Of a stretch of DNA of 64,000 nucleotides, positions 18,545 through 33,511 are shown piece by piece. Position 1 is the first letter of the stretch. Each line of letters begins with the position of its first letter. A model generated the notes under the pieces. That model searched no databases and was not told the DNA's origin. It worked only from the letters and a program-made list of their open reading frames with translations. The position numbers and the translations under genes were made by a program. This stretch comes from Vicinamibacterales bacterium. Lineage in GTDB: Bacteria > Acidobacteriota > Vicinamibacteria > Vicinamibacterales > CAVVIG01. Location: contig DATKHR010000088.1 of assembly GCA_035510155.1 (NCBI GenBank), positions 7,846 through 71,845 on the forward strand. The letters are read 5' to 3'.

Positions 18545-19987
18545 ATGACGCGTCTTCAGTCTCGGCGCCCGCAAGACGGCTTCACTGGTTCTGGCAACTT
18601 CGGCCGCCTTCATCGCGGCCTCAGCTCTCTCGAGTACTTCACGTTTGGCTTCGGGACCATGATCGGCGTCGGCTGGCTCGTCCTGATGGACGACTGGCTC
18701 ACGCGCGGCGGCCCGGCGGGCGGCATGCTCGGGTTCCTCCTCGGCGGCCTCTTCTTGTTCCCGATTGCGCGCACCTACGGCCGGTTGGTGCAGCAGATCC
18801 CGGACGCAGGGGCCGAGATTGCGTACACCGAAGGCGTGATGCCGCCGTTTGTCAGCTTCGCGGCCGGTTGGACCATGGTCCTGTCATACGCCATCGTGTG
18901 CCCGTGGGAAGCGGTCGCGACGGGAAATCTGCTCGCGCGCGTCATTCCGGCTCTTAACACGCACGAGCTGTACGCGATTGGCGGAACGCCGATCTTCGCG
19001 CCACGTGTCGCCGTCGGTGTCGGGCTCACGGCCGTCGTCGCGATCGTCAACTACCGCGGCATCAAACCGAGCGGCATTTTTCAGAACGTGATGACGTTCG
19101 GCCTGCTGTTCACATTTGCCATCTTCACGCTCCTCGGCTTTGCCCGCGGGTCTCCATCAAATCTGCAGCCGCTCTTCTCGCATGCGGGAGCTGCGGGCGC
19201 CTGGCTTTCGATTTTTCTCGTCCTTCAGATCGTCCCGTATTTCATGACGGGCTTCGAATCGGTCGCGAAAGGCTCCGAGGAGGCGCATGAAGGATTCGAT
19301 CCGCGCAACTTCGCGAAGGCCATCTACGCGGCTCTCGTCGCCGGGTTTCTTTTCTACGTGATCGTCATCGCGGTCGTCACCTGGGTGTATCCCTGGCAGG
19401 AAATTGTCTCCGGCCACGTGCGCACCGAGGTCGCCTTCGAGCGGACGTTCGGGTCGCATGCCATCGCTCAGTTGATCCTCTTCGGCGCGTTTCTCTCGTT
19501 GCTCAAGATCTTCAACGGCAATTTTGTCGCCGGCACGCGAATGATGTACGCCATGGGAAAACGCGGCGTGGTTCACCGCTCGCTTGGCTTCGTCCACCCC
19601 ACCTATGGAACCCCAGCCGTCGCCATCTCGCTCCTCGCCGCGCTCACAATTGCTTGCGCCATGATGGGCGACGCGATTCTGGTGCCGATCACCGAAGTCG
19701 GGTCGCTGACGGTTGGCATTGGCTGGCTTTCAGCATGTGCCGCGTTCATCCTGCGGGCGCGCGTCCACGCGGCCGGCACTGACATGTCCCGCGCATCTCA
19801 CGCGACCCACCTGACCCACCCGACCTATGCGGCGTGGCTCGGCGCCGCCGTCAGCCTCGCAATCGTCCTGATGAAAGTCATTCCGGCCATTCCCGGTAGC
19901 TTTACGCGGGCTGAGTGGATGGCGTTCGCCGCATGGAGCGGCGCTGGCTTCGTGTTCTGGCGGCTGAGACCCTCACTGGCGCGGTGA
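18545..19987 (+). CDS. APC-family amino acid/polyamine permease
   Basis: Start taken at MTRLQS (ATG 18545). About 12 TM helices and an APC-type N-terminal pattern (LEYFTFGFGTMIGVGWLV). It is divergent from the agmatinase. Confidence 0.8.
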   Translation: MTRLQSRRPQDGFTGSGNFGRLHRGLSSLEYFTFGFGTMIGVGWLVLMDDWLTRGGPAGGMLGFLLGGLFLFPIARTYGRLVQQIPDAGAEIAYTEGVMPPFVSFAAGWTMVLSYAIVCPWEAVATGNLLARVIPALNTHELYAIGGTPIFAPRVAVGVGLTAVVAIVNYRGIKPSGIFQNVMTFGLLFTFAIFTLLGFARGSPSNLQPLFSHAGAAGAWLSIFLVLQIVPYFMTGFESVAKGSEEAHEGFDPRNFAKAIYAALVAGFLFYVIVIAVVTWVYPWQEIVSGHVRTEVAFERTFGSHAIAQLILFGAFLSLLKIFNGNFVAGTRMMYAMGKRGVVHRSLGFVHPTYGTPAVAISLLAALTIACAMMGDAILVPITEVGSLTVGIGWLSACAAFILRARVHAAGTDMSRASHATHLTHPTYAAWLGAAVSLAIVLMKVIPAIPGSFTRAEWMAFAAWSGAGFVFWRLRPSLAR

Positions 19988-20707
19988 GCTGAGTGCCTGT
20001 TCGATGAAGGCCGCCTCGGGGAGCGCGCCAAGGATCTCGACTTCCTCGTTCACCACGGTCTTCGGCACGCCGCTCACCTGATACTTCCGCGCGAGGTCGG
20101 GGAACTCCGTCGCTTCTACTGCGGTCGCGGTGATGTGAGGACTTGCAAACGCCATCTCGTGCGCGAGGCTGACCGCCCGCGGACAGTGCGGTCAAGTCGG
20201 TGTGGTAAACACCTGCATCGTAATCGGCCTGTCGACCGCCCGCAGCCGATCGAGGCTCGCGGCCGAAAGCGCGGACTCCCGTCCGCCCGCAAGCAGGACC
20301 GCCTGCACGAGCGAGACGAACTCCCAACCGGATGGAGCGCCCAGGAACCTGATCCGCGAATCCTTCATCGTGTCCGACATCCGGCCGTCACCTGTCGAGC
20401 TCGCCTCACTCGACCCACCCGACTCACGCGACCTACCCGACTCACTCGACCCACTCCCGTACGCAATCGCGATGGCTGGCGTTCGGTCGACGCCGTACTG
20501 CTTTGCCTTGTCCCCCTCGAGCACGAGGTTGATCTCCTCTACGGAAATCCTGTCGGAAAGACCGCGGAGCTCGTCGAGAATCTGTCGCGTCTCGCCGCAC
20601 GTTTCGCACCCAATCGCCTGGGAAAAGAACAGCAGACGGACCGAACGGGTCATCCGATCGAATGCTTCGCGAAGTTTCTGCTGGTCGGCCGCCGAGAGCA
20701 AGGACAT
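19973..20707 (-). CDS. Two-domain thioredoxin-fold protein disulfide oxidoreductase (glutaredoxin-like / AhpF-N-terminal-like), candidate selenoprotein with in-frame TGA at 20194-20192
   Basis: ORFs 20707-20192 and 20155-19973 are in the same frame. Unit 1 has CETC. Unit 2 reads VFTTPT-[TGA]-PHCPRAVSLAHEMAF...EFPDLARKYQVSGVPKTVVN, so the stop falls on the first Cys of the CPxC motif. Confidence 0.65.
20170..20194 (-). promoter_or_regulatory. Hairpin at the in-frame UGA (candidate SECIS-like element)
   Basis: The minus-strand RNA is UGACCGC-ACUGUCCGCGG-GCGGUCA, a perfect 7-bp stem. An alternative fold is GCGGGC-GGUCA-GCCUCGC, with a GG-containing apical loop about 20 nt downstream of the UGA. 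Confidence 0.35.
20403..20456 (+). repeat. Three tandem 18-bp units inside the inter-domain linker of the thioredoxin-fold gene
   Basis: gcctcactcgacccaccc / gactcacgcgacctaccc / gactcactcgacccactc. The units are in frame and encode GSSESG-RSRESG-GSSEAS on the minus strand. A related copy, ctcacgcgacccacctgacccacccgacc, lies at 19797-19825. Confidence 0.8.
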
Positions 20708-20790: not shown

Positions 20791-21270
20791 CTACTTGAAC
20801 AGATCGTCGAACGCTTTCCGCGCGTCACTCGACGACGGATCTGCCGTGCCGCTCGTCGATCCCGACGACGAGGGTGCCGTGCTGGTCTGCCGCTCGACGG
20901 TCGTCCGCGGCGTCATCGCCGCACAGGCATTGCGCGCGTCTTTCGGCGACACGCGCGCGGAGATCTTGTCGCTCTGCGCGCACTCCCACCGCGCGCTCGT
21001 ATCGAACGACACGCATTGGATGCAGCTGTGCAAATCGACGCCGCACCGCCCGCACGTGTCCAGCAGCCCGACGGGGACCGACAACAGGTTGCCGCACCGC
21101 GCGCACCGGAACACTTCGTGGGCGGCCATCAGATTCGGCGTTTTCGGACCTCTCTCGTCCTGCAAGACACGCCCGGGCGCCCGCTCTTTGGGTGGCGCGG
21201 GGTGGCCGCGCGGTTGCCGCTCGCGAGGGTCGTCCTGATACCCGCGCTGCCGATATTTCCGATCGCTCAT
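20791..21270 (-). CDS. Cys-rich zinc-ribbon protein with basic N-terminus and Ser/Thr-rich tail
   Basis: Start at MSDRKYRQRGY (ATG 21270-21268). Cys pairs CARCGN...CGRCG...CIQC...EC. The longer ORF to 21540 would overlap the divergent S9 peptidase leader. Confidence 0.55.
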   Translation of the reverse strand: MSDRKYRQRGYQDDPRERQPRGHPAPPKERAPGRVLQDERGPKTPNLMAAHEVFRCARCGNLLSVPVGLLDTCGRCGVDLHSCIQCVSFDTSARWECAQSDKISARVSPKDARNACAAMTPRTTVERQTSTAPSSSGSTSGTADPSSSDARKAFDDLFK

Positions 21271-21361
21271 GATGCTGGCAGACCCCTCATCCTCACATGA
21301 ATCCTGGCCGACGAGCCCCCGAGTCTCGAGCGGCGCGGCTGACAAGGGTAATATCGTTTGT

Positions 21362-23518
21362 ATGCGGCCTTTTCGCAACGCCCAGTCGCCGGCCCGCGCA
21401 TGGCGGCATGCTTCGACGATCGTCATTTTGGCAGCGACCGCAGGCGCGTGGGGGCTCGAGCCAGCCGCGAGGCTTCGAGCCTCCCCGGCAACCCTCTTGG
21501 CACAAGGCCAATCGCGGCGCGCGATGTCTCTCATGGACATCGCGGAACTCCCGCGTGCCCTCGACCCCCAGCTTTCTCCTGACGGCCGCTACGTCTTGTA
21601 CGCCCTCAGCCACGCTGACTGGAAGGCCGGCCGGCCGGTTTGGCAGATCTGGCGCCAGGAGATTGGCGGCGGCGGGCCCCTGCAGCTGACGTTTGGTGAC
21701 AACGGCGTCGTCCCTGGGTTCACACGCTGGTCGCCCGACGGAAGGACAATCCTGTTCGCCCGCGACGGTCAGCTCTCCCTTATGTCCGCAGGCGGGGGGG
21801 AGCCGACGCCGCTCACGAGGCATGCGACGAGCGCGTCGGCTCCAACCTGGTCGGCAGACGGGAGCGCCGTCTACTTCCTTGCCGCCGATGCCCGGACGGG
21901 CGAAGAACGCGAGCGCGCCCGGGTGCGGGACGATCTCTACTCCTACGAGGAGGACTTCAAGCAGCGCCATCTCTGGAAGGTGACGGTTCCAACCGGCGCT
22001 GGCGGCGCCGGTGGCCCCCGAACGGCCGGAGCCTTCGGGTGTTGTGGCGGCGAGCAGGCGATCACGTCCGGTGACTTCTCCATCGCGTCCTATCGCCTGT
22101 CCCGCGACGGCCAACACATCGCCTTCACACGCGTGCCAAGCCCCCTTCCTGGCGACGAAGACAAGAGCGAGATCTGGACGATGGATGCCAATGGCCAGAA
22201 CGGTCGTGCGCTGGTGACGAACGCTATCGTGAAGCTGGAGCCGGAGCTTTCGCCGGATAACCGGCAAGTGCTCTTTCTCGCTTCCGCGAACGCCCGCCTC
22301 GAGCCCTATTACAGTCAAAACCTCTTCGTTGTCCCGGCTACTGGCGGTACGCCGGTCCCGGTGGTGCTCGATATCCCGTACGAGTTCGACCGCGCGACGT
22401 GGGCGCCCGACGGCCGCTCGATTCTGGGCGTCGTCAATATGGGCCTGCATAGCGAAGTCTTTCGCATCAACGTCGCGGCGCGAACGTTCACGCCGTTGAC
22501 CGATGGCCGGCATTCCATTCCCTCGGCACCGGCGCCAGCCTGGAATCTCGAGCCGCGCGCCGGCAAGCTGGTGTTTCTGCTCGACGAGCCGACTCGCTTC
22601 GGCGACGCCTGGACGCTTGCGGTTGCGGCGACCGATCTCGCGCGCGTCACCCGCGTGACGGGCGTCTATGACACGCTCGAGACGACATTCGCGCTTCCCA
22701 GGCAGGAGCGATTCGAGTGGAAGGGGGCCGACGGAGCGACAGTCGACGGCATCCTGTTCTACCCGTCAGATTATCGACCCGGCGTGCGGTACCCGCTCGT
22801 CGTGCAGATGCATGGCGGGCCCGCCGAATCCGACAAGTTCGGCAGCGGCCCCGGGTTGCTCTTGAACTATGTACCTGTCCTGACCGGGAGGGGCTACGTC
22901 GTTTTGCGGCCGAACTACCGCGGCAGTGCTGGGTACGGCAACGCGTTCTATCGCGATGTGGTCGGCCACTACTTCAACAACATGGCGCCGGACGTGCTGG
23001 CCGGCGTCGACGCGCTCGTCGAGAAGGGGATTGCGGATCCGGACCGGATGGTGCTCATGGGGTGGAGCGCCGGCGCGCATCTGGTGAACAAGCTGATCAC
23101 GATGACCGATCGGTTCAAGGCCGCTTCAGCCGGCGCCAGCGCGGCCAACTTCATCTCTTTTTACGCTCAGAGCGATGTGCGGTACATCCGGACGCCTTGG
23201 TTTGGCGGCACTCCGTGGCAGAAGGACGCCCCAACCGATCTCTATTGGACTCAGTCCCCGCTGAAGGACGTTGCGAAGGTGAAGACGCCGACGCTCTTCT
23301 TCGTCGGTGAGAACGACGCGCGGGTCCCGCTCGCGCAGTCGATCGAAATATGGCGCGCGCTCAGAACAAACGGGGTGTCGACCCGTCTCTATGTCGCGCC
23401 GCGCGAGGGTCATCAGTGGGGCGAATTGCGCCATCAGATCGCCAAAGCGAACGCCGAGCTTGAATGGTTCGAGCGGTACGCTCGTGGGCGGCCGTACACG
23501 GCCGAAAAGGCGCCCTGA
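21362..23518 (+). CDS. S9 family serine peptidase (prolyl oligopeptidase/dipeptidyl aminopeptidase) with N-terminal TolB-like beta-propeller
   Basis: Start at MRPFRNAQ... with a signal-like segment. Propeller repeats (SPDGRY, SPDGRTILF, SADGSAVYF, SPDNRQVLF, APDGRSILG). Catalytic motifs GWSAGAH, GENDARVP and EGHQW. Confidence 0.85.
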   Translation: MRPFRNAQSPARAWRHASTIVILAATAGAWGLEPAARLRASPATLLAQGQSRRAMSLMDIAELPRALDPQLSPDGRYVLYALSHADWKAGRPVWQIWRQEIGGGGPLQLTFGDNGVVPGFTRWSPDGRTILFARDGQLSLMSAGGGEPTPLTRHATSASAPTWSADGSAVYFLAADARTGEERERARVRDDLYSYEEDFKQRHLWKVTVPTGAGGAGGPRTAGAFGCCGGEQAITSGDFSIASYRLSRDGQHIAFTRVPSPLPGDEDKSEIWTMDANGQNGRALVTNAIVKLEPELSPDNRQVLFLASANARLEPYYSQNLFVVPATGGTPVPVVLDIPYEFDRATWAPDGRSILGVVNMGLHSEVFRINVAARTFTPLTDGRHSIPSAPAPAWNLEPRAGKLVFLLDEPTRFGDAWTLAVAATDLARVTRVTGVYDTLETTFALPRQERFEWKGADGATVDGILFYPSDYRPGVRYPLVVQMHGGPAESDKFGSGPGLLLNYVPVLTGRGYVVLRPNYRGSAGYGNAFYRDVVGHYFNNMAPDVLAGVDALVEKGIADPDRMVLMGWSAGAHLVNKLITMTDRFKAASAGASAANFISFYAQSDVRYIRTPWFGGTPWQKDAPTDLYWTQSPLKDVAKVKTPTLFFVGENDARVPLAQSIEIWRALRTNGVSTRLYVAPREGHQWGELRHQIAKANAELEWFERYARGRPYTAEKAP

Positions 23519-23674: not shown

Positions 23675-24325
23675 ATGGCGCAGATCTTTCACCGCTCTAC
23701 GAACACGATTGCTCGGGTCAGCATCTTCGGTGCGGTTTTCTTCGTCGCCGGCCTTCTGTATCTCTTCGATCAGATCAATCGATCGTCCTGGGTGACCGAG
23801 GTCCACGTCGCCCGAGAGCAGCCAATCCAGTTCAGCCACGAGCGGCACGTCGCCGGCAACGGCATCGACTGCCGCTACTGCCACGCTTCCGTTGAAGACA
23901 GCGCGTTCGCCGGAATTCCGCCAACCAGGACGTGCATGAACTGCCACTCGCAGATCTTCGCCAACAGCCCGTACCTCGCGCCCGTTCGCGACAGTTTCCG
24001 TACAGGCACGTCGCTCCAGTGGACGCGCGTGCACGACTTGCCTGACTTCGTGTACTTCGATCACAGCATTCACGTGAACAAAGGCGTCGGGTGCACGACC
24101 TGTCACGGCCAAGTCGATCGCATGCCGCTCATGTGGCGCGAGAAATCGCTGCAGATGGAATGGTGCCTCGACTGCCACCGGCAGCCCGAGCGCTACGTGC
24201 GGCCGCGCGAAGCCGTGTTCCGGGTGGACTACGAGCCACCCCCGGATCAGCTGGAGTTGGGCCGACGCCTGGTGGAGGAGTATCAAATTCAGCGACTCAC
24301 AAGCTGCTCGACATGTCATCGTTGA
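23675..24325 (+). CDS. actA: Alternative Complex III subunit ActA, pentaheme cytochrome c
   Basis: 216-aa ORF with an N-terminal TM anchor and five CxxCH motifs (CRYCH, CMNCH, CTTCH, CLDCH, CSTCH). It is followed by actBCDEF. Confidence 0.85.
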   Translation: MAQIFHRSTNTIARVSIFGAVFFVAGLLYLFDQINRSSWVTEVHVAREQPIQFSHERHVAGNGIDCRYCHASVEDSAFAGIPPTRTCMNCHSQIFANSPYLAPVRDSFRTGTSLQWTRVHDLPDFVYFDHSIHVNKGVGCTTCHGQVDRMPLMWREKSLQMEWCLDCHRQPERYVRPREAVFRVDYEPPPDQLELGRRLVEEYQIQRLTSCSTCHR

Positions 24326-27300
24326 AACACAGCGTGATGCGGGATGCGGGATGCGGGATTCGTCATGCAATGGACTGCGTGTCCCACGAATCCCACATCC
24401 CGAATCCCGCATCACGTCCCTTCTGGCGAACGCTCGAAGAACGCGCAAACGATCCGGCCTTCCAGGAGCGCCTCTTTAACGAGTTCCCCTCGGAGATCGA
24501 AGCGATTACGGACCCGATCCAGCGCCGGACTTTTCTGAAGCTGATGTCCGCGTCAATGGCCCTGGCGGGCGTCACCGCCTGCACCCGTCAGCCTGTCGAA
24601 AAGATCGTTCCTTACGTCCGCCAGCCCGAAGAGCTGATTCCAGGACGTCCGCTGTACTTCGCCACAGCGATGGCCGTGGGCGGCGTCGCCACAGGACTGG
24701 TCGTCGAAAGCCACGAAGGCCGGCCGACAAAGATCGAAGGCAACGCCCTCCACCCAGGCAGCCTCGGCGCGGCTGACGTCTTCTCCCAAGCCGCGATCCT
24801 CGGTCTCTATGACCCCGATCGGTCGATGACGCTCACCAATCTTGGCGAGATTCGGCCCTGGTCGGTATTCCTCGGCGCGATTCGCGCTGCCCTCACCGTG
24901 CAGCAAGCGCTGAAAGGCGCCGGCCTCCGCATCCTCACGGAATCCGTGAGCTCGCCAACACTCGCCGCCCAAATCCGCGACATCCTCTCGCGCTACCCGG
25001 AAGCGAAATGGCACCAATGGGATCCCGCCAGCCGCGACAACGCTCGCGCCGGCTCGCAACTGGCCTTCGGCCAATACGTCGACGCCCAATACAAGCTGGA
25101 GAACGCTGACGTCATTCTGGCGCTCGACGCAGACTTCCTTTCCTGCGGGCCAGGCAGCCTCCGCTACGCCCGCGACTTCGCCGCACGTCGTCGTCCCGAA
25201 AACGCCGCGCGCATGAATCGACTCTACACCGTGGAGACGATGCCGACGTCGACCGGCTCGCGCGCCGATCACAGATTACCGCTCAAGCCAAGTCTTGTCG
25301 GCGCCGTCGCTCGGCAAATCGCGGCAGCCGTCGCGCCAGGCGTCGAGCACCGTGGCGGAGCAGGGGCAGGCGGCCGTGCGGCCCCACAGGATCCACGCGC
25401 CGGCATCAGGGTGAGCGCGGCCGCACAGAAGTTTGTCGACACCGTCTCGAAAGATCTTCTGGCCCACCGCGGCCGGAGCCTCGTGATCGCGGGGGACACC
25501 CAGCCGGCGTACGTCCACGCTCTCGCGCACGCCATGAACCAGACCCTCGCCAACGTAGGCCAAACAGTCATCTTTACCCAGACGGTAGAAGCCGAACCGA
25601 TCGATCAGATCGCGTCTCTCCGTGACCTTGTCACCGAGATGAGCGGAGGCAAGGTCGATCTGCTGGTCATTCTGTCGGGGAACCCTGTCTATACCGCGCC
25701 CGCAGATCTCCGATTCGATGAAGCCCTTTCAAAGGTCCCGTTGAGAGTGCGGCTCGGTCTCTACGAGGACGAGACGTCGGCGCTCTGCCACTGGCAGATC
25801 CCGGAAGCGCACTTCCTCGAGGCATGGAGCGACGCCCGCGGATTCGACGGTACGGCGTCCATCGTCCAGCCGCTCATCGCCCCGCTCTACAACGGCAAGT
25901 CGGCGCACGAGGTGCTCGCCGCCATGACCGACCGCCCCGAGCGGTCCGCCTACGACATCATCCGCGAGCAGTGGAAGATCCGGGGGGGAGGGACACCCGG
26001 AACGGACAATCCCCCCGGCGGCGACGACGACTGGCAACGATGGCTCCACGACGGCGTGATTCCGAACACCGCCTTCACGCCAAAAGCCGTCACGATCGCA
26101 TCCCCCCTCGAATCCGGAATCGAATCCGCGGCCCAATCCGCTACCCAATCCGCAGTCCGCGATCCGCAATCCGGGATCCCCAATCCGCAATCCGGAATCG
26201 AGGTGTCTTTCCACCTCGACCCCTCCGTGCTCGACGGCCGATTCGCCAACAACGGCTGGCTGCAGGAGCTGCCCAAGCCGGTCACCAAGCTGACGTGGGA
26301 CAACGCGATCTTCGTCAGCCCTGCCACCGCGGCGCGCCTCAGCGCCACGAACACGCCAGCCTATCGCGGCGGAGAGCACGGCACGATCATGAGCGACGTC
26401 TTCGAGCTTCGATCGGCGGGACGCGCTGTTCGTGGCCCGATGTTCGCGGTTGCAGGCCACCCCGACGAGTGCGCCACGGTGCATCTCGGCTACGGGCGCG
26501 CCCGTGGCGGCCATGCGGCGAAAGGCGCTGGATTCGACGCCACCGCCATTCGCCGTTCTGACGCGTTTTGGTTCGCGCCCGCCGAACTGGTCAAAACGCG
26601 CGACACCTATCCGCTCGCATGCACGCAGTATCACCATCTCATGGAAGGCCGCGACATCATCCGCGCGGTCACGCGCGACGAATATCTACGGAACCCGAAG
26701 AGCATGAGCGAGGGACCCGGCAAAGAGGAACCACCGTCGCGGGCGATCACGCTCTATCCCGAGCACGAGTACACAGGTTACAAGTGGGGCATGGCTATCG
26801 ATGTCAACGCCTGCATCGGCTGCAACGCCTGCGTTGTCGGCTGCCAGGCCGAGAACAACATCGCGATTGTCGGCAAGGATCAAGTCCTTCGCGGGCGAGA
26901 AATGCACTGGATCCGCATCGATACGTACTATCGCGGCAATGTCGAGGAGCCGGAGACCTACTTCCAACCCGTGCCGTGCATGCAGTGCGAGAACGCCCCG
27001 TGCGAGCCCGTCTGCCCCGTAGGCGCGACCGTGCATAGTGACGAGGGGCTGAACGACATGGTGTACAACCGCTGCGTCGGCACGCGGTACTGCTCGAACA
27101 ACTGCCCCTACAAGGTCCGCCGCTTCAACTATTTCTTGTACCAGGACTGGAACACGCCCAGCCTCAAGCTGCAGCGCAACCCGGACGTCAGCGTCCGCAG
27201 CCGAGGAGTGATGGAGAAGTGCACGTACTGCGTTCAGCGCATCAACGAAGCGAAGATTCGGGCTGAGAAGGAAGGCCGCAGGGTCCGGGACGGCGATATC

Positions 27301-27489
27301 CAGACTGCCTGCCAGCAGACCTGTCCCGCTCAGGCCATCTTTTTTGGCGATCTCAACGACCCGGCGAGCCGCGTCGCGAAGCTGCGGGCGGAGGAGCGGA
27401 CCTATTCCCTGCTTGCTGATCAGAACACGCGCCCGCGGACAACCTACCTCGGTGCGGTTCGCAATCTGAACCCGGAGCTGGCGGAATAA
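24313..27489 (+). CDS. actB: Alternative Complex III subunit ActB (molybdopterin-oxidoreductase-like domain fused to a 4Fe-4S ferredoxin domain), Tat substrate
   Basis: [23 protein letters not shown] followed by the twin-arginine signal [18 protein letters not shown]-terminal FeS clusters [49 protein letters not shown] and CTYCVQR...[10 protein letters not shown]. The start is ATG 24313 (overlapping the actA stop) or ATG 24370 in the loop of the inverted repeat. Confidence 0.9.
24333..24416 (+). repeat. Inverted repeat with 30-bp arms (28/30 complementary) and a 24-nt spacer at the actA/actB junction
   Basis: Left arm cgtgatgcgggatgcgggatgcgggattcg (24333-24362). Right arm cgaatcccacatcccgaatcccgcatcacg (24387-24416). 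The arms are built from GCGGGAT/ATCCCGC heptamers. Confidence 0.85.
26109..26201 (+). repeat. In-frame AATCCG-type short-repeat block inside actB
   Basis: The series gaatccggaatc gaatccgcggcc caatccgctacc caatccgcagtc ...gatccgcaatccgggatccccaatccgcaatccggaatcga has 12-nt periodicity at the start. It encodes [31 protein letters not shown]. Confidence 0.75.
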
Positions 27490-28907
27490 TGGCAGCCGCA
27501 CCTGCGCTGGGAGGGGAGAGCGGCAGGCGCTCTGGAATGGAATCGACAGTGCCTGCCTCTCCGGTCATCGCGCCCGGTCACACCTTCGCGACGGTCACCG
27601 ACAAGATCAGTGCGATCGTGCTGACCCGCAAGACGCCGCTCGGCTGGTGGGCGGGGTTCGGCATCGTTTTTTCGCTCGCGGGTCTGCTCCTTCTCTCGCT
27701 GTCGTACCTGGTGCTGAAAGGCATCGGCATCTGGGGAAACAACATTCCAGTCGGGTGGGCGTTCGATATCACCAACCTCGTGTGGTGGATCGGCATCGGG
27801 CACGCCGGCACGCTCATCTCGGCCATTCTGCTCCTGCTCCGCCAGACGTGGCGCACCTCAATCAACAGATTTGCCGAAGCGATGACGCTCTTCGCGGTCG
27901 CCTGCGCGGGCATCTTCCCGTTGTTTCATACAGGGCGCCCCTGGCTGGCGTACTGGCTGTTCCCCTACCCGAACACGATGGGCGTCTGGCCGCAGTTCCG
28001 CAGCCCCTTGATGTGGGACGTCTTCGCGATCTCGACCTACGCGACGGTGTCGTTCGTGTTCTGGTTCATCGGGCTCATTCCCGATCTCGCGACCTTGCGC
28101 GACCGGTCGCAGTCTCGGGCGGGACGCATCATTTACGGCGTCCTCGCGATGGGCTGGCGCGGCTCGGCGCAACATTGGCATCGCTACGAGACGGCGTACC
28201 TCCTGCTGGCGGGCCTCGCCACGCCGCTCGTGGTTTCGGTGCACACCGTGATCAGCTTCGACTTCTCGATCGGCATCGTCCCCGGCTGGCATACGACGAT
28301 CTTTCCGCCGTATTTCGTCGCGGGCGCCATCTATTCCGGCTTCGCGATGGTCCTCTCGCTGGCGATCCCGATCCGCGCTGTGTACGGGCTCGAGGACTTC
28401 ATCACGATGCACCATTTGCAGAACATGGCGAAGGTGATGCTCGTGACCGGTCTGATCGTCGCCTACGGGTACGGAACCGAAGCGTTCATCGCGTGGTACA
28501 GCGCGGACAAGTTCGAGATGTTCGTGGCGGTCAACCGGTCCACCGGGCCCTACTGGTGGACCTACTGGTTGCTGATCCTCTGCAACGTCCTCGCGCCGCA
28601 GGTGCTCTGGTTGAAGCGCGCCCGCACCAGCGTCATGCTGCTGTTCGTGTTGTCGCTCATCGTGAACGTCGGCATGTGGCTCGAGCGCTTCGTGATCATC
28701 GTCACCAGCCTCCACCGAGACTTCCTGCCGTCGTCGTGGGGCATGTTCAGCCCGACGTTTTGGGACTGGTCGACCTTCATCGGCACCATCGGTCTGTTCC
28801 TCACGCTGTTGTTCCTCTTCCTCCGCTTCCTTCCGATGATCTCCATTTTCGAGATGCGCGCGATTCTTCCGGGCGCAAAGGTCGACGAAGACCTGGAGAC
28901 GGCCTGA
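27489..28907 (+). CDS. actC: Alternative Complex III subunit ActC (NrfD/PsrC-like polytopic quinol-interacting membrane subunit)
   Basis: 472-aa ORF whose ATG overlaps the actB TAA (TAATG). About 10 TM helices of NrfD type ([31 protein letters not shown]). The start may be the internal MESTV (27537). Confidence 0.9.
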
Positions 28908-28908
28908 C

Positions 28909-29460
28909 ATGGCGCAGCACACCGCATCAGCGTCGCTATACGGGCTGCTGGCCGAATTCGACGATCCAGGCTCCCTCGTCGCCGCCGCGCACCAGGCGTA
29001 CGAGCACGGCTATCGAACCATGGACGCCTACTCCCCGTTTCCCATCGAGGAGCTCCATGAGGCGCTGGGCGCGAGCCACACGCGGCTCCCCCTCGTCGTG
29101 CTCATTGGCGGCCTCGTAGGAGGCCTCGGCGGCTACGCGCTGCAGTATTGGGCCGCGGCGGTGACCTATCCTCTGAACATCGGCGGCAAGCCGCTCAACA
29201 GCTGGCCCGCATTCATCCCCATCACGTTCGAGTGCACGATTCTCGTCGCCGCGCTCTCCGCGGTCCTGGGAATGCTCGCGCTGAACGGGCTGCCGCAGCC
29301 GTTTCATCCGGTGTTCAACGTCCCGCGGTTTGCGCTGGCCAGCCGCAACCGGTTCTTCCTGTGCATCGAGTCGTGCGACCCGCAGTTCCACCTCGAAGAC
29401 ACCCGACGGTTTCTCGAAACGCTCAACCCGCTCGAGGTCACCACCGTTGCAGCCGATTGA
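28909..29460 (+). CDS. actD: Alternative Complex III subunit ActD (DUF3341-type)
   Basis: 183-aa ORF. N-terminus LYGLLAEFDDPGSLVAAAHQAYEHGYRTMDAYSPFPIEEL followed by two TM helices. It sits between actC and the monoheme subunit. Confidence 0.8.
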   Translation: MAQHTASASLYGLLAEFDDPGSLVAAAHQAYEHGYRTMDAYSPFPIEELHEALGASHTRLPLVVLIGGLVGGLGGYALQYWAAAVTYPLNIGGKPLNSWPAFIPITFECTILVAALSAVLGMLALNGLPQPFHPVFNVPRFALASRNRFFLCIESCDPQFHLEDTRRFLETLNPLEVTTVAAD

Positions 29461-29500
29461 GCACCTGACCGGCCGGGGCGGCGGCCGCCCACGCCAGATC

Positions 29501-30061
29501 GTGTCGGCCCTGGCGGCCGCCTCCTTCCTGGTTCTGGCTGCCGCCTGCAGGCAGGACATGCACGATCAACCGAAGTATGTGCCGCTCCGCCAGTCGTCAT
29601 TTTTCGGCGACGAGCGCTCAGCGCGTCCACTCGTGCCCGGAACAGTCGCTCGCGGCCACCTCCGCGATGACACGCTGTTGTATACGGGCAAGATCAACGG
29701 CGCGGATGCGACGGTCTTCCCGCTCGTTGCCGACGCGCGCGTGATGGCGCGTGGACAGGAGCGATTCGATATCTACTGCTCTCCCTGCCATGGGCGCACT
29801 GGACAAGGAGACGGCATGGTCGTCCGCCGAGGGTTCCGCCGTCCGCCCTCGTTCCACGAGGATCGCCTCCGCAACGCCCCCATTGGCCATCTGTTCGACG
29901 TCATCACCAACGGCTTCGGCGCCATGCCCGATTACGCCACGCAGATTCGCGCAGAAGATCGGTGGGCGATCGTCGCTTACGTGCGCGCGCTGCAGTTGAG
30001 CGAGCATGCAACGCTCGCCGACGTGCCGGCGGACAAGCGCAGCGAGCTGGAGAAGCATTAG
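29501..30061 (+). CDS. actE: Alternative Complex III subunit ActE, monoheme cytochrome c lipoprotein
   Basis: A GTG start at 29501 gives the lipoprotein signal MSALAAASFLVLAAAC. An alternative TTG lies at 29447. Single CSPCHG heme motif and a C-terminal class-I cytochrome c fold (GFGAMPDYA). Confidence 0.75.
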   Translation: MSALAAASFLVLAAACRQDMHDQPKYVPLRQSSFFGDERSARPLVPGTVARGHLRDDTLLYTGKINGADATVFPLVADARVMARGQERFDIYCSPCHGRTGQGDGMVVRRGFRRPPSFHEDRLRNAPIGHLFDVITNGFGAMPDYATQIRAEDRWAIVAYVRALQLSEHATLADVPADKRSELEKH

Positions 30062-30076
30062 TCCGGTCACGCGACT

Positions 30077-31306
30077 ATGCCACCGTACCAGGAGACCGCC
30101 GGCGTCGCGATTCCCGAGCTCCGCAGCCTCGAGCGGCGCGCCTTCGTCGCCGCCGCTGCAACAGGGGCCATTTCCCTGGGGGGCCTGTTCCTCAACCCGA
30201 CCCAGTTTCTCCAGTCTTATGTGATGGCGTATATGTGGTGCCTTGGCGCAACGCTGGGCTGCCTGGCGCTGGGCATGATGCACCAGCTGACCGGCGGCGG
30301 CTGGGGCGTGCTGATTCGCCGCCCGATCGGCGCCGCGTCCCGCGTGCTGCCCGTTCTGACGGTTTTTTTTCTTCCCATTGCCCTGGGCGTGCACCGGCTG
30401 TACACCTGGGCCGATCCAGGCATTGTCGCCCGGGATGAAGTCCTTCGACACAAAGCCATCTATCTGAACGTCCCGTTCTTCCTCACCCGCGCCGCACTCT
30501 ATTTTCTCGTTTGGAACGCGCTCGTCTTCTTCCTGAACCGCTGGTCGCTCGAGCAGGACGTGACCGGTGACCCGAACCTCGCGCGCCGGATGCAGAAGCT
30601 GAGTGCCGCCGGCCTCCTTGCGTACGGCGTGACGATCACGTTCGCGTCGTTCGACTGGCTGATGTCGCTCGATCCGCACTGGTACTCGACGATCTACGGT
30701 GTCCTCATCATGGGCGGCCAGGGGCTCACCGCCCTCGCCGTTCTGACGATCGTCCTCGTGTGGCTCAGCCGCCGCCCGCCGCTCCAGGGCGTCGTCGTGC
30801 CGGCATATTTTCACGACCTCGGCAACCTGATGCTCGCGTTCACGATGCTGTGGGCGTACTTCGCTTTCTCGCAGTACCTCATCATCTGGTCCGGCAACCT
30901 GCCGCACGAGATCGAGTGGTATCTGCACCGCTCGTATACGAGCTGGCGCTTCGCCGCGCTCGCGCTCGTGGCCTTTCATTTTGCCATTCCCTTCGCGCTC
31001 CTCTTGTCACGTCGCGTGAAACGGCACGCCCAGTCCATTCTCCAGGTCGCGATCTGGATCCTGGGCGCGAGGCTCGTCGATCTGTTGTGGCTGATCGCGC
31101 CGGAATTCCACCACGAAGGCCTGTCGATCAGCTGGCTGGACGTGATCTTGCCGGTGGCGCTTGGGAGCCTCTGGCTCGGTACATTCATCTGGCAACTGCG
31201 CGGGCGCGCCATCCTGCCGGTCCATGATCCGCAGTTCGATGAGACGCTGGGGCGAATCATCCAACGAAGTACCGGGGGACCAACCCACCCAAGGACGGCC
31301 CATTAG
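30077..31306 (+). CDS. actF: Alternative Complex III subunit ActF (second NrfD-like membrane subunit)
   Basis: 409-aa polytopic ORF immediately after actE. The hydrophobic profile is NrfD-like. Confidence 0.8.
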   Translation: MPPYQETAGVAIPELRSLERRAFVAAAATGAISLGGLFLNPTQFLQSYVMAYMWCLGATLGCLALGMMHQLTGGGWGVLIRRPIGAASRVLPVLTVFFLPIALGVHRLYTWADPGIVARDEVLRHKAIYLNVPFFLTRAALYFLVWNALVFFLNRWSLEQDVTGDPNLARRMQKLSAAGLLAYGVTITFASFDWLMSLDPHWYSTIYGVLIMGGQGLTALAVLTIVLVWLSRRPPLQGVVVPAYFHDLGNLMLAFTMLWAYFAFSQYLIIWSGNLPHEIEWYLHRSYTSWRFAALALVAFHFAIPFALLLSRRVKRHAQSILQVAIWILGARLVDLLWLIAPEFHHEGLSISWLDVILPVALGSLWLGTFIWQLRGRAILPVHDPQFDETLGRIIQRSTGGPTHPRTAH

Positions 31307-32566: not shown

Positions 32567-33511
32567 ATGTGGACCGGCATTCCCCTTTTTCCCGAAACCG
32601 CGTCGACGATGGCGTCGCGCGTGGATGCCCTGTACCTGTTCCTCCTGGGAGTCGCCGGCTTCTTCTCGCTCCTCATCGCCGGCCTCATCGTCTTCTACGC
32701 CGTGCGATACAGGCGGCAGTCGCCGCGCAGCGTTGGCGCCACGATCCACGGGAGCGTGACGCTCGAGCTGACGTGGACGATCGTTCCGTTTCTCATCACG
32801 ATGGTCATCTTCGTCTGGGGCGCCAGCGTCTTCTTCGCGATGGCGCGGCCGCCGGACGACACGCTCGATATCTACGTGGTCGGCAAGCAGTGGATGTGGA
32901 AATTCCAGCACCTCGACGGGCAGCGTGAAATCAACGAGCTGCACGTCCCGCTCGGGCGGCCAACCAAGTTGATCATGACCTCGGAGGACGTGATCCACGA
33001 CGTGTTCGTCCCGGCCTTTCGTGTCAAGGCGGACGTGCTCCCTGGACGCTACACGAACATCTGGTTTCAACCGACCAAGGCGGGGCGGTACCACTTGTTC
33101 TGCGCGGAGTACTGCGGAACCAGGCACTCCGGGATGATCGGCGAGGTCGTCGTCATGGAACCGACCGAGTACCAGGCGTGGCTGAGCGGCGGACCCGAGG
33201 GGTCGCTCGCTGAAAACGGCGCGAAGCTCTTCGAGAGCCTGGCCTGCAACACCTGCCACCGCCCGGACGCGCAGGGCCGCGGGCCGACGCTCGACGGTCT
33301 GTTCGGCAAGATGGTCAAACTCCAGAGCGGTGAAACGATCACCGCCGACGAGGCGTATGTGCGCGAATCGATTCTGAACCCGTCTGCCAAGATCACCGCC
33401 GGCTACCAGCCCATCATGCCGACGTTTCAGGGCCTGGTGACCGAGGAGCAGCTCCTGGAGCTGATCGAATACGTCAAGTCCCTGCAGGCGCCCCCACAGG
33501 CCGCACGATGA
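32567..33511 (+). CDS. coxB: Cytochrome c oxidase subunit II with fused C-terminal cytochrome c domain (caa3-type)
   Basis: Two N-terminal TM helices. CuA site HDVFVPAFRVKAD...FCAEYCGTRHSGM. C-terminal CNTCH heme c motif. Confidence 0.9.
   Translation: MWTGIPLFPETASTMASRVDALYLFLLGVAGFFSLLIAGLIVFYAVRYRRQSPRSVGATIHGSVTLELTWTIVPFLITMVIFVWGASVFFAMARPPDDTLDIYVVGKQWMWKFQHLDGQREINELHVPLGRPTKLIMTSEDVIHDVFVPAFRVKADVLPGRYTNIWFQPTKAGRYHLFCAEYCGTRHSGMIGEVVVMEPTEYQAWLSGGPEGSLAENGAKLFESLACNTCHRPDAQGRGPTLDGLFGKMVKLQSGETITADEAYVRESILNPSAKITAGYQPIMPTFQGLVTEEQLLELIEYVKSLQAPPQAAR

Follow-up and report, generated by a model that had tools for sequence, protein, structure and literature searches.

On the minus strand of a 64,000-nucleotide stretch of DNA from a Vicinamibacterales bacterium (Acidobacteriota; contig DATKHR010000088.1), hereafter called the window, two open reading frames (ORFs) follow one another in a common frame with an in-frame TGA codon between them. 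Here we focus on this pair, which we read as a single gene for a selenocysteine (Sec)-containing protein disulfide oxidoreductase (PDO). From the sequence and its translation, the frame that runs from 20707 to 19973 holds 244 codons and a single internal TGA at 20194-20192. The upstream ORF (20707..20192) has 171 sense codons from the ATG at 20707 and ends with RPITMQVFTTPT (...VFTTPT) directly before this TGA. Twelve sense codons, PHCPRAVSLAHE, then separate the TGA from the ATG of the second ORF (20155..19973), and altogether 72 sense codons (PHCPRAVSLAHEMAFASPHITATAVEATEFPDLARKYQVSGVPKTVVNEEVEILGALPEAAFIEQALSSPRQ) can be read in frame past the internal TGA until the terminal TGA at 19975-19973. 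A first-pass annotation, made from the sequence alone, had described two minus-strand ORFs in one frame with a TGA and 12 sense codons between them; its coordinates and sequence match exactly, and the read-through frame of 244 amino acids that it proposed is borne out by the sequence and translation. The good coding bias which it noted past the TGA is also found, with the G+C content at third codon positions (GC3) being 0.81 both upstream and downstream of the codon.

The gene is not recognizable as such in existing gene calls. The mechanical ORF list divides it into 20707..20192 and 20155..19973, and public gene calls give a 'hypothetical protein' of 171-183 amino acids with no Pfam hit together with a separate 60-aa Thioredoxin_3 ORF. 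The 171-aa fragment is a 100% match to GenBank "hypothetical protein VMS04_05805" from a Vicinamibacterales metagenome-assembled genome (MAG), and the same mis-call into two ORFs occurs in every retrieved locus of the species (L001-L010). Such a split is far beyond chance, since the two ORFs are halves of one curated family model and the same split is present in at least 120 species, as described below. The N-terminal fragments differ in length between strains (159-183 aa) with the copy number of an in-frame Gly/Ser/Glu-rich repeat insert; all of them end in ...VFTTPT and the remainder is near-identical. Relatives with Cys in place of the TGA have unrelated low-complexity inserts at the position of this repeat.

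Protein family and fold

For protein searches, residue 172, encoded by the internal TGA, was entered as Cys (U to C). The 244-aa product scored 241.9 bits with the NCBIfam model TIGR02187.2 ("PDO_seleno_TRX, protein disulfide oxidoreductase"), compared to a curated equivalog cutoff of 185, and the name of this model itself carries "seleno". The full-length AhpF model TIGR03140 gave 73.4 bits over model positions 67-190 only, against a cutoff of 502.9, and the protein is therefore not a member of that family. PDO structures from Aquifex (2ywm, 2ayt) and Pyrococcus (1a8l, 1j08) were aligned over both thioredoxin-fold units with E-values of 1e-30 to 1e-33, those for 2ywm, 2ayt and 1a8l being 1e-32 to 1e-33. 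The two units stand in tandem by alignment, with residues 11-81 and 115-236 of the query corresponding to 10-87 and 91-213 of the 2ywm/2ayt chain. In these alignments, the TGA is matched to the first Cys in the CxYC site of the PDOs' C-terminal unit (...TSCGYCP). Moreover, C34, C37, C172 and C175 are invariant in 46 full-length Cys-form homologues with 59-73% identity. The first-pass annotation had located the TGA at the N-terminal Cys position in the second active-site motif of a PDO or AhpF-N-terminal-like protein, which the family model, the PDB alignments and the 46 homologues all uphold, and the normal CETC that it assigned to the first unit is present at codons 34-37.

Conservation of the TGA and selection beyond it

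Within the species, the gene order of the window recurs in ten strain loci, which come from independent assemblies, and the TGA is kept in 10/10. Downstream of the TGA, these loci contain nine variable sites, of which seven are at third codon positions, and zero frameshifts or new stops. Across species, one genome per GTDB species was scanned for TTYNNNACNCCNACNTGACCNYAYTGYCC, which corresponds to F-x-T-P-T-TGA-P-[H/Y]-C-P. Genes with this pattern are present in at least 120 species-level genomes, and all 120 listed are true homologues. Among the matches listed are Acidobacteriota (Vicinamibacteria, Terriglobia, Blastocatellia), Chloroflexota, Methylomirabilota/Rokubacteria/NC10 and Actinomycetes; further labels include Bacillota (with the isolate Sulfobacillus thermotolerans Kr1, CP019454, locus L049), Armatimonadota, Ignavibacteria, Binatia and others. 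Enough downstream DNA was available for 115 of the 120 listed loci, and these continue in frame for 68-101 codons past the TGA, a stretch that specifies the conserved half of the fold with ...EFP.L...Y.V..VPK..IN...; the DNA retrieved for the other five ends short of the full downstream frame. As a control, 120 metagenome loci were collected in which the codon aligned with the TGA is TGY (Cys forms). Homologues thus have either TGA (at least 120 species) or TGY (120 metagenome loci and 46 Cys proteins) in this column, and an in-frame UGA which aligns with Cys is kept across species.

The segment after the TGA was also examined for selection by computing the ratio of nonsynonymous to synonymous substitution rates (dN/dS) over 62 codons, with the window being compared to nine further Sec forms that are Vicinamibacteria-like in sequence. 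In eight of the nine comparisons dN/dS was 0.08-0.19, and in one it was 0.33, with dS between 0.7 and 1.6. The sequence after the UGA is under the purifying selection of a translated segment. Along with the mostly third-codon changes among strains, these values show the downstream segment of the relatives to be intact, whereas decay of it would have spoken against the first-pass proposal. For the Vicinamibacteria-like lineage, the selection data require translation through the UGA.

RNA hairpins around the UGA codon

Two pairings had been named in the first-pass annotation and both exist, the one with the GGUCA loop being best drawn with a bulge at U29 (Table 1; nucleotides are counted from the U of the UGA). 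In this hairpin, which resembles a Sec insertion sequence (SECIS) element, nt 14-20 pair with nt 26-28 and 30-33, and GGUCA at nt 21-25 (20174-20170) forms the apical loop. It begins ~11 nt after the UGA, which fits the ~11 nt of mRNA that the ribosome occludes in its mRNA tunnel (PMC4513850). The competing hairpin probably cannot form during decoding of the UGA, since it contains the decoded codon and ~11 nt are occluded in the tunnel. The loop GGUCA is also perfectly complementary to UGACC, which comprises the Sec codon and the first two bases of the following Pro codon. The same five letters (GGTCA) are found at nt 21-25 in 15/119 Sec forms and 6/120 Cys forms.

Comparison of the two forms points to a hairpin specific to TGA genes. 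The region from nt 12 to 46 folds with a mean of -11.9 kcal/mol in Sec forms and -8.0 kcal/mol in Cys forms. The excess in stability of the Sec forms is 2.0-2.7 kcal/mol in three GC bins from 0.5 to 0.8, and there is no significant difference in the highest bin (0.8-0.9). A perfect hairpin of at least 6 bp can be formed by 79% of Sec forms versus 38% of Cys forms, and an apical loop beginning at nt 20-22 is present in 79/118 versus 12/120 (Fisher p = 1e-20), with CGUGC, GGUC(A) and CGUGNU being the commonest loops of Sec forms. These results agree with the stem-loop with a G-containing apical loop that had been predicted ~20 nt downstream. From sequence, a candidate SECIS stem-loop with a G/U apical loop is accordingly placed near the UGA.

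The most stringent comparison keeps the encoded peptide fixed. When forms encoding the same seven residues were matched, Sec forms folded with -9.97 kcal/mol as opposed to -6.70 kcal/mol for Cys forms (p = 2e-7), which implies that Sec forms choose synonymous codons that build the stem. The stems vary by lineage with pairing retained (GCGAGC/GCUCGC, GCAAGC/GCUUGC, GCCGGC/GCUGGC, CCGUGC/GCACGG, CCAGUC/GACUGG). In eight Sec-form relatives of the window's clade, codons 5-9 past the TGA (CCG CGG GCG GTC AGC) are synonymously invariant while the neighbouring codons vary; in five Cys-form relatives with nearly the same peptide, codons 5-9 are variable. The contrast between Sec and Cys forms of the same peptide provides a clean computational signature of a coding-region SECIS. 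Four Cys-form loci (L187, L227, L208 and L230) have a hairpin identical or near-identical to that of Sec forms encoding the same peptide, and L187 has every base from nt 12 to nt 36 in common with actinobacterial Sec forms. Such hairpins look like fossil SECIS elements left by a recent replacement of Sec with Cys.

Table 1. Features of the Sec-form PDO gene in the window.
Feature	Position	Strand	Remarks
Complete recoded coding sequence, Sec at codon 172	19973..20707	minus	ATG 20707-20705; true stop TGA 19975-19973
In-frame TGA, putative Sec codon 172, first residue of the U-P-H-C redox motif	20192..20194	minus	TGY in Cys forms
TGT, Cys175, resolving cysteine of the UxxC motif	20183..20185	minus	Invariant among homologues
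CETC motif, codons 34-37, N-terminal thioredoxin-fold unit	20597..20608	minus	Aligns with CESC of Aquifex PDO
C-terminal thioredoxin-fold unit, residues 164-239, spanning the TGA	19991..20218	minus	Pfam Thioredoxin_3, E = 2.4e-20
In-frame 9/18-nt tandem repeat, codons ~85-101, Gly/Ser/Glu-rich insert	20405..20456	minus	Tandem Repeats Finder
SECIS-like hairpin, nt 14-33 from the U of the UGA, 7 bp, U29 bulged, -11.7 kcal/mol	20162..20181	minus	Fold computed
Competing hairpin UGACCGC/GCGGUCA, nt 1-25, burying the UGA, -14.6 kcal/mol	20170..20194	minus	Excludes the SECIS-like hairpin

Probable Sec insertion and alternative readings of the UGA

Homology, conservation of the TGA, selection downstream of it and a hairpin specific to TGA forms together support what the first-pass annotation had proposed, namely a UPHC selenoprotein of the PDO/AhpF-N-terminal-like family. 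We put the probability at roughly 90% that the two ORFs together form a single gene encoding a PDO of 244 residues and two thioredoxin-fold units, with Sec in the position of the attacking Cys of its C-terminal site (U172-P-H-C175).

Several points weigh against it. Reviews place this family among the predicted rather than the experimentally verified selenoproteins. The genes for SelA, SelB and tRNASec are absent from the window and from the ~8 kb past its left end, where purE/purK, peptidases and an ABC transporter lie without any sel genes among them; selD was not searched for. When E. coli SelA and SelB were run by tblastn against the window and ~240 loci, nothing was found in the window, a tRNA scan of the window gave zero tRNA genes, and aragorn found no tRNASec in those loci. 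A convincing second gene with an in-frame TGA was not found in the window either. As for the RNA, an Rfam scan of the whole window that included SECIS models gave zero matches at gathering score, the hairpin region of the window is unremarkable against shuffles of its GC-rich sequence (z = +0.23), and the competing hairpin is the more stable of the two (-14.6 vs -11.7 kcal/mol). Imposing one fixed register on all Sec forms yields only 38-79% pairing per pair. This low figure results from lineages using several registers, and register-free and peptide-matched comparisons were used instead. The basis of the RNA case is the comparative contrast between Sec and Cys forms, not the single sequence of the window.

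The nature of the UGA may be explained in other ways. A TGC or TGT codon of a Cys-form PDO could have mutated to TGA, leaving a pseudogene with a decaying downstream part, and both the public annotation (a 171-aa hypothetical protein and a separate 60-aa ORF) and the search result for the Sec machinery in the window would suit this. However, the same TGA recurs in at least 120 species with downstream frames intact in the 115 loci with enough DNA, dN/dS is ~0.1 at near-saturated dS, the within-species changes are mostly third-codon with no frameshift or stop in ten strain loci, and synonymous sites in the hairpin are constrained; a pseudogene is highly improbable. Alternatively, the locus could make two polypeptides, the 171-aa N-terminal unit and a 60-aa C-terminal piece from the ATG at 20155, which is exactly what gene callers predict. 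Some shortened N-terminal product is indeed expected, because the efficiency of Sec insertion is only 30-40% in E. coli (PMC4513850). Nevertheless, the 12 codons from the TGA to that ATG encode a conserved in-frame PHCPRAVxLAH in the species retrieved, and the 60-aa piece would be devoid of the redox motif and of half of the thioredoxin fold, so that separate products have only a very slight chance of being the true explanation. For the Vicinamibacteria-like lineage both of these readings are excluded, since an untranslated segment could not hold such a dN/dS pattern. An error in sequencing or assembly, with TGC read as TGA, would require a single-base difference, and nothing else speaks for it; with an identical TGA in dozens of independent assemblies from different samples, its probability is negligible.

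This leaves the question of which residue is inserted. Read-through could place Cys or another residue at the UGA by means of an opal-suppressor or tRNASec-like tRNA, or could occur by near-cognate decoding. Acidobacteria have tRNASec-like allo-tRNAs that were proposed as possible nonsense suppressors, and a SelC*-type tRNACys in other phyla was proposed as an opal suppressor (PMC5389517). On the other hand, the UGA occupies the redox Cys position in the UxxC motif of a catalogued selenoprotein family, TGA forms come with a G/U-loop hairpin at the distance expected for SelB, and the window contains no such tRNA. TGA is also the commonest ordinary stop of the window, ending 11/19 long high-GC3 ORFs in addition to the PDO gene itself. 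A general suppressor would therefore be costly, and the recoding must be site-specific with no genome-wide reassignment. Given the SECIS-like hairpin and the record of the family, insertion of a residue other than Sec is unlikely, and we assign it a small probability. It is also conceivable that the UGA is not decoded as Sec only, and that a tRNASec-like suppressor may insert Cys or another residue at this hairpin-marked codon. The enzyme could then shift between Sec and Cys forms with selenium supply, and the competing hairpin at nt 1-25, which sequesters the UGA and uses the SECIS loop GGUCA as its 3' arm, might tune termination versus recoding. We give such mixed decoding little credence.

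Proposed decoding and redox function

If the UGA is a Sec codon, the hairpin at nt 14-33 with its GGUCA loop would recruit SelB-GTP-Sec-tRNASec once the ribosome has reached the UGA at 20194-20192. Delivery by SelB would outcompete release factor 2 (RF2), Sec would be placed at UGA172, and translation would go on to the stop at 19975-19973. A fraction of ribosomes probably stops at the UGA and frees the 171-aa N-terminal unit. The full-length enzyme would alternate between a selenol/thiol and a selenenylsulfide through the U172/C175 couple of its C-terminal unit. By analogy to archaeal and Aquifex PDOs and to the N-terminal domain of AhpF, electrons would probably pass from a flavoprotein of the thioredoxin-reductase type to protein disulfides or thiol peroxidases.

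Gene neighbourhood

Clustering of the neighbourhoods within 3.5 kb of the 120 listed Sec-form loci (L011-L130) revealed no common operon partner, nor any conserved reductase or peroxiredoxin neighbour. In 16/120 of these loci, the gene is preceded on its own strand by an ECF-type sigma-70 factor, and an OsmC-like gene, a possible thiol-peroxidase partner, lies just downstream on the same strand in 12/120. With respect to the Sec machinery, the only clear gene near the 120 listed Sec-form genes is a selA homologue (L080, 4394-5716) in an Anaerolineaceae MAG. It is in the same 8-kb locus as the Sec-form PDO gene and shares 41% identity with E. coli SelA across 457 residues. A weak SelB-like match by tblastn was seen in locus L044.

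In the window itself, a minus-strand ORF at 20791-21540 (211 aa as called in related contigs) lies upstream of the PDO gene on the same strand with a gap of 84 nt. It has no Pfam hit and contains several CxxC pairs (…CARCGN…CGRCG…CIQC…), and it is kept in all strains of the species and not in other lineages. On the other side of the PDO gene, an amino-acid permease has a 15-nt overlap with its 3' end, and genes for an arginase-family protein and an M61 peptidase are also located there. On the plus strand at ~23675-31000, a cluster resembling alternative complex III includes a multihaem cytochrome c7-like protein (23675-24325), a Fer4 subunit, an NrfD-like protein, ActD and a cytochrome c. Four other candidate in-frame TGAs of the window, with coding signal on either side, do not resemble recoding sites, two of them being clearly adjacent genes which share a frame. 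At 33509, two adjacent genes sharing a frame are putative cytochrome oxidase subunits, as read from the visible sequence alone.

Comparison with known proteins

The PDO of the window can be compared to several groups of known proteins. Cys-type PDOs of known structure, from Pyrococcus furiosus (1A8L), Pyrococcus horikoshii (1J08) and Aquifex aeolicus (2AYT/2YWM), share the two tandem thioredoxin-fold units with a CxxC-type site in each, but have Cys at the position of the TGA and no low-complexity insert. The hosts of the Pyrococcus and Aquifex PDOs are hyperthermophiles. The N-terminal domain of AhpF (1HYU, 1ZYN, 4O5Q) has a homologous double thioredoxin fold (E 1e-13 to 1e-15), in which the CxxC of the C-terminal unit hands electrons to a peroxiredoxin; unlike AhpF, the window protein has no FAD/NADH thioredoxin-reductase-like domain attached to it. 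The thioredoxin and glutaredoxin with a Sec-containing UxxC site that are known from Treponema denticola and Clostridium oremlandii likewise have a thioredoxin fold with Sec for the attacking Cys of CxxC, although these are single-domain proteins of other Pfam families and have been experimentally characterised.

The SECIS of Escherichia coli fdhF is a hairpin in the coding sequence ~11 nt past the UGA; its stem has a single bulged U, and its small apical loop exposes a G and a U. The hairpin of the window is similar in all of these features. Its sequence is unrelated, however, and its bulge is on the 3' side; PDO lineages furthermore vary in register and have loops of 3-8 nt.

The closest relatives are the Sec PDOs already catalogued, which fall under the same model above its cutoff and have a UxxC motif with Sec as its first residue at the C-terminal redox site. 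Predictions of selenoproteins in the PDO family date back to the early 2000s. A selenoprotein of the PDO_seleno_TRX type was tabulated in 2006 in Carboxydothermus hydrogenoformans and Symbiobacterium thermophilum, and Acidobacteria were recorded with selenoproteins (PMC1794560). The C. hydrogenoformans protein has the accession ABB15282.1. In contrast to the two carriers of 2006, the host here is a soil Vicinamibacterales MAG, and what sets the window gene apart from the catalogued Sec PDOs is its strain-variable Gly/Ser/Glu repeat insert and a public record that shows it as a shortened hypothetical protein.

Implications for the PDO family

The gene of the window is a mis-annotated member of a known selenoprotein family and its identification is a correct rediscovery, with its value in annotation and ecology rather than in concept. 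Known principles are unchanged, as the family and the UxxC motif were already catalogued. For annotation, correcting VMS04_05805 together with the orphan 60-aa ORF restores a complete redox enzyme. For ecology, the Sec form is found in at least 120 species-level genomes, many of them labelled as soil and groundwater phyla (Acidobacteriota, Chloroflexota, Methylomirabilota). This suggests that the Sec PDO is a widespread selenoprotein in soil and groundwater bacteria, and that it can serve as a convenient marker for Sec decoding in MAGs.

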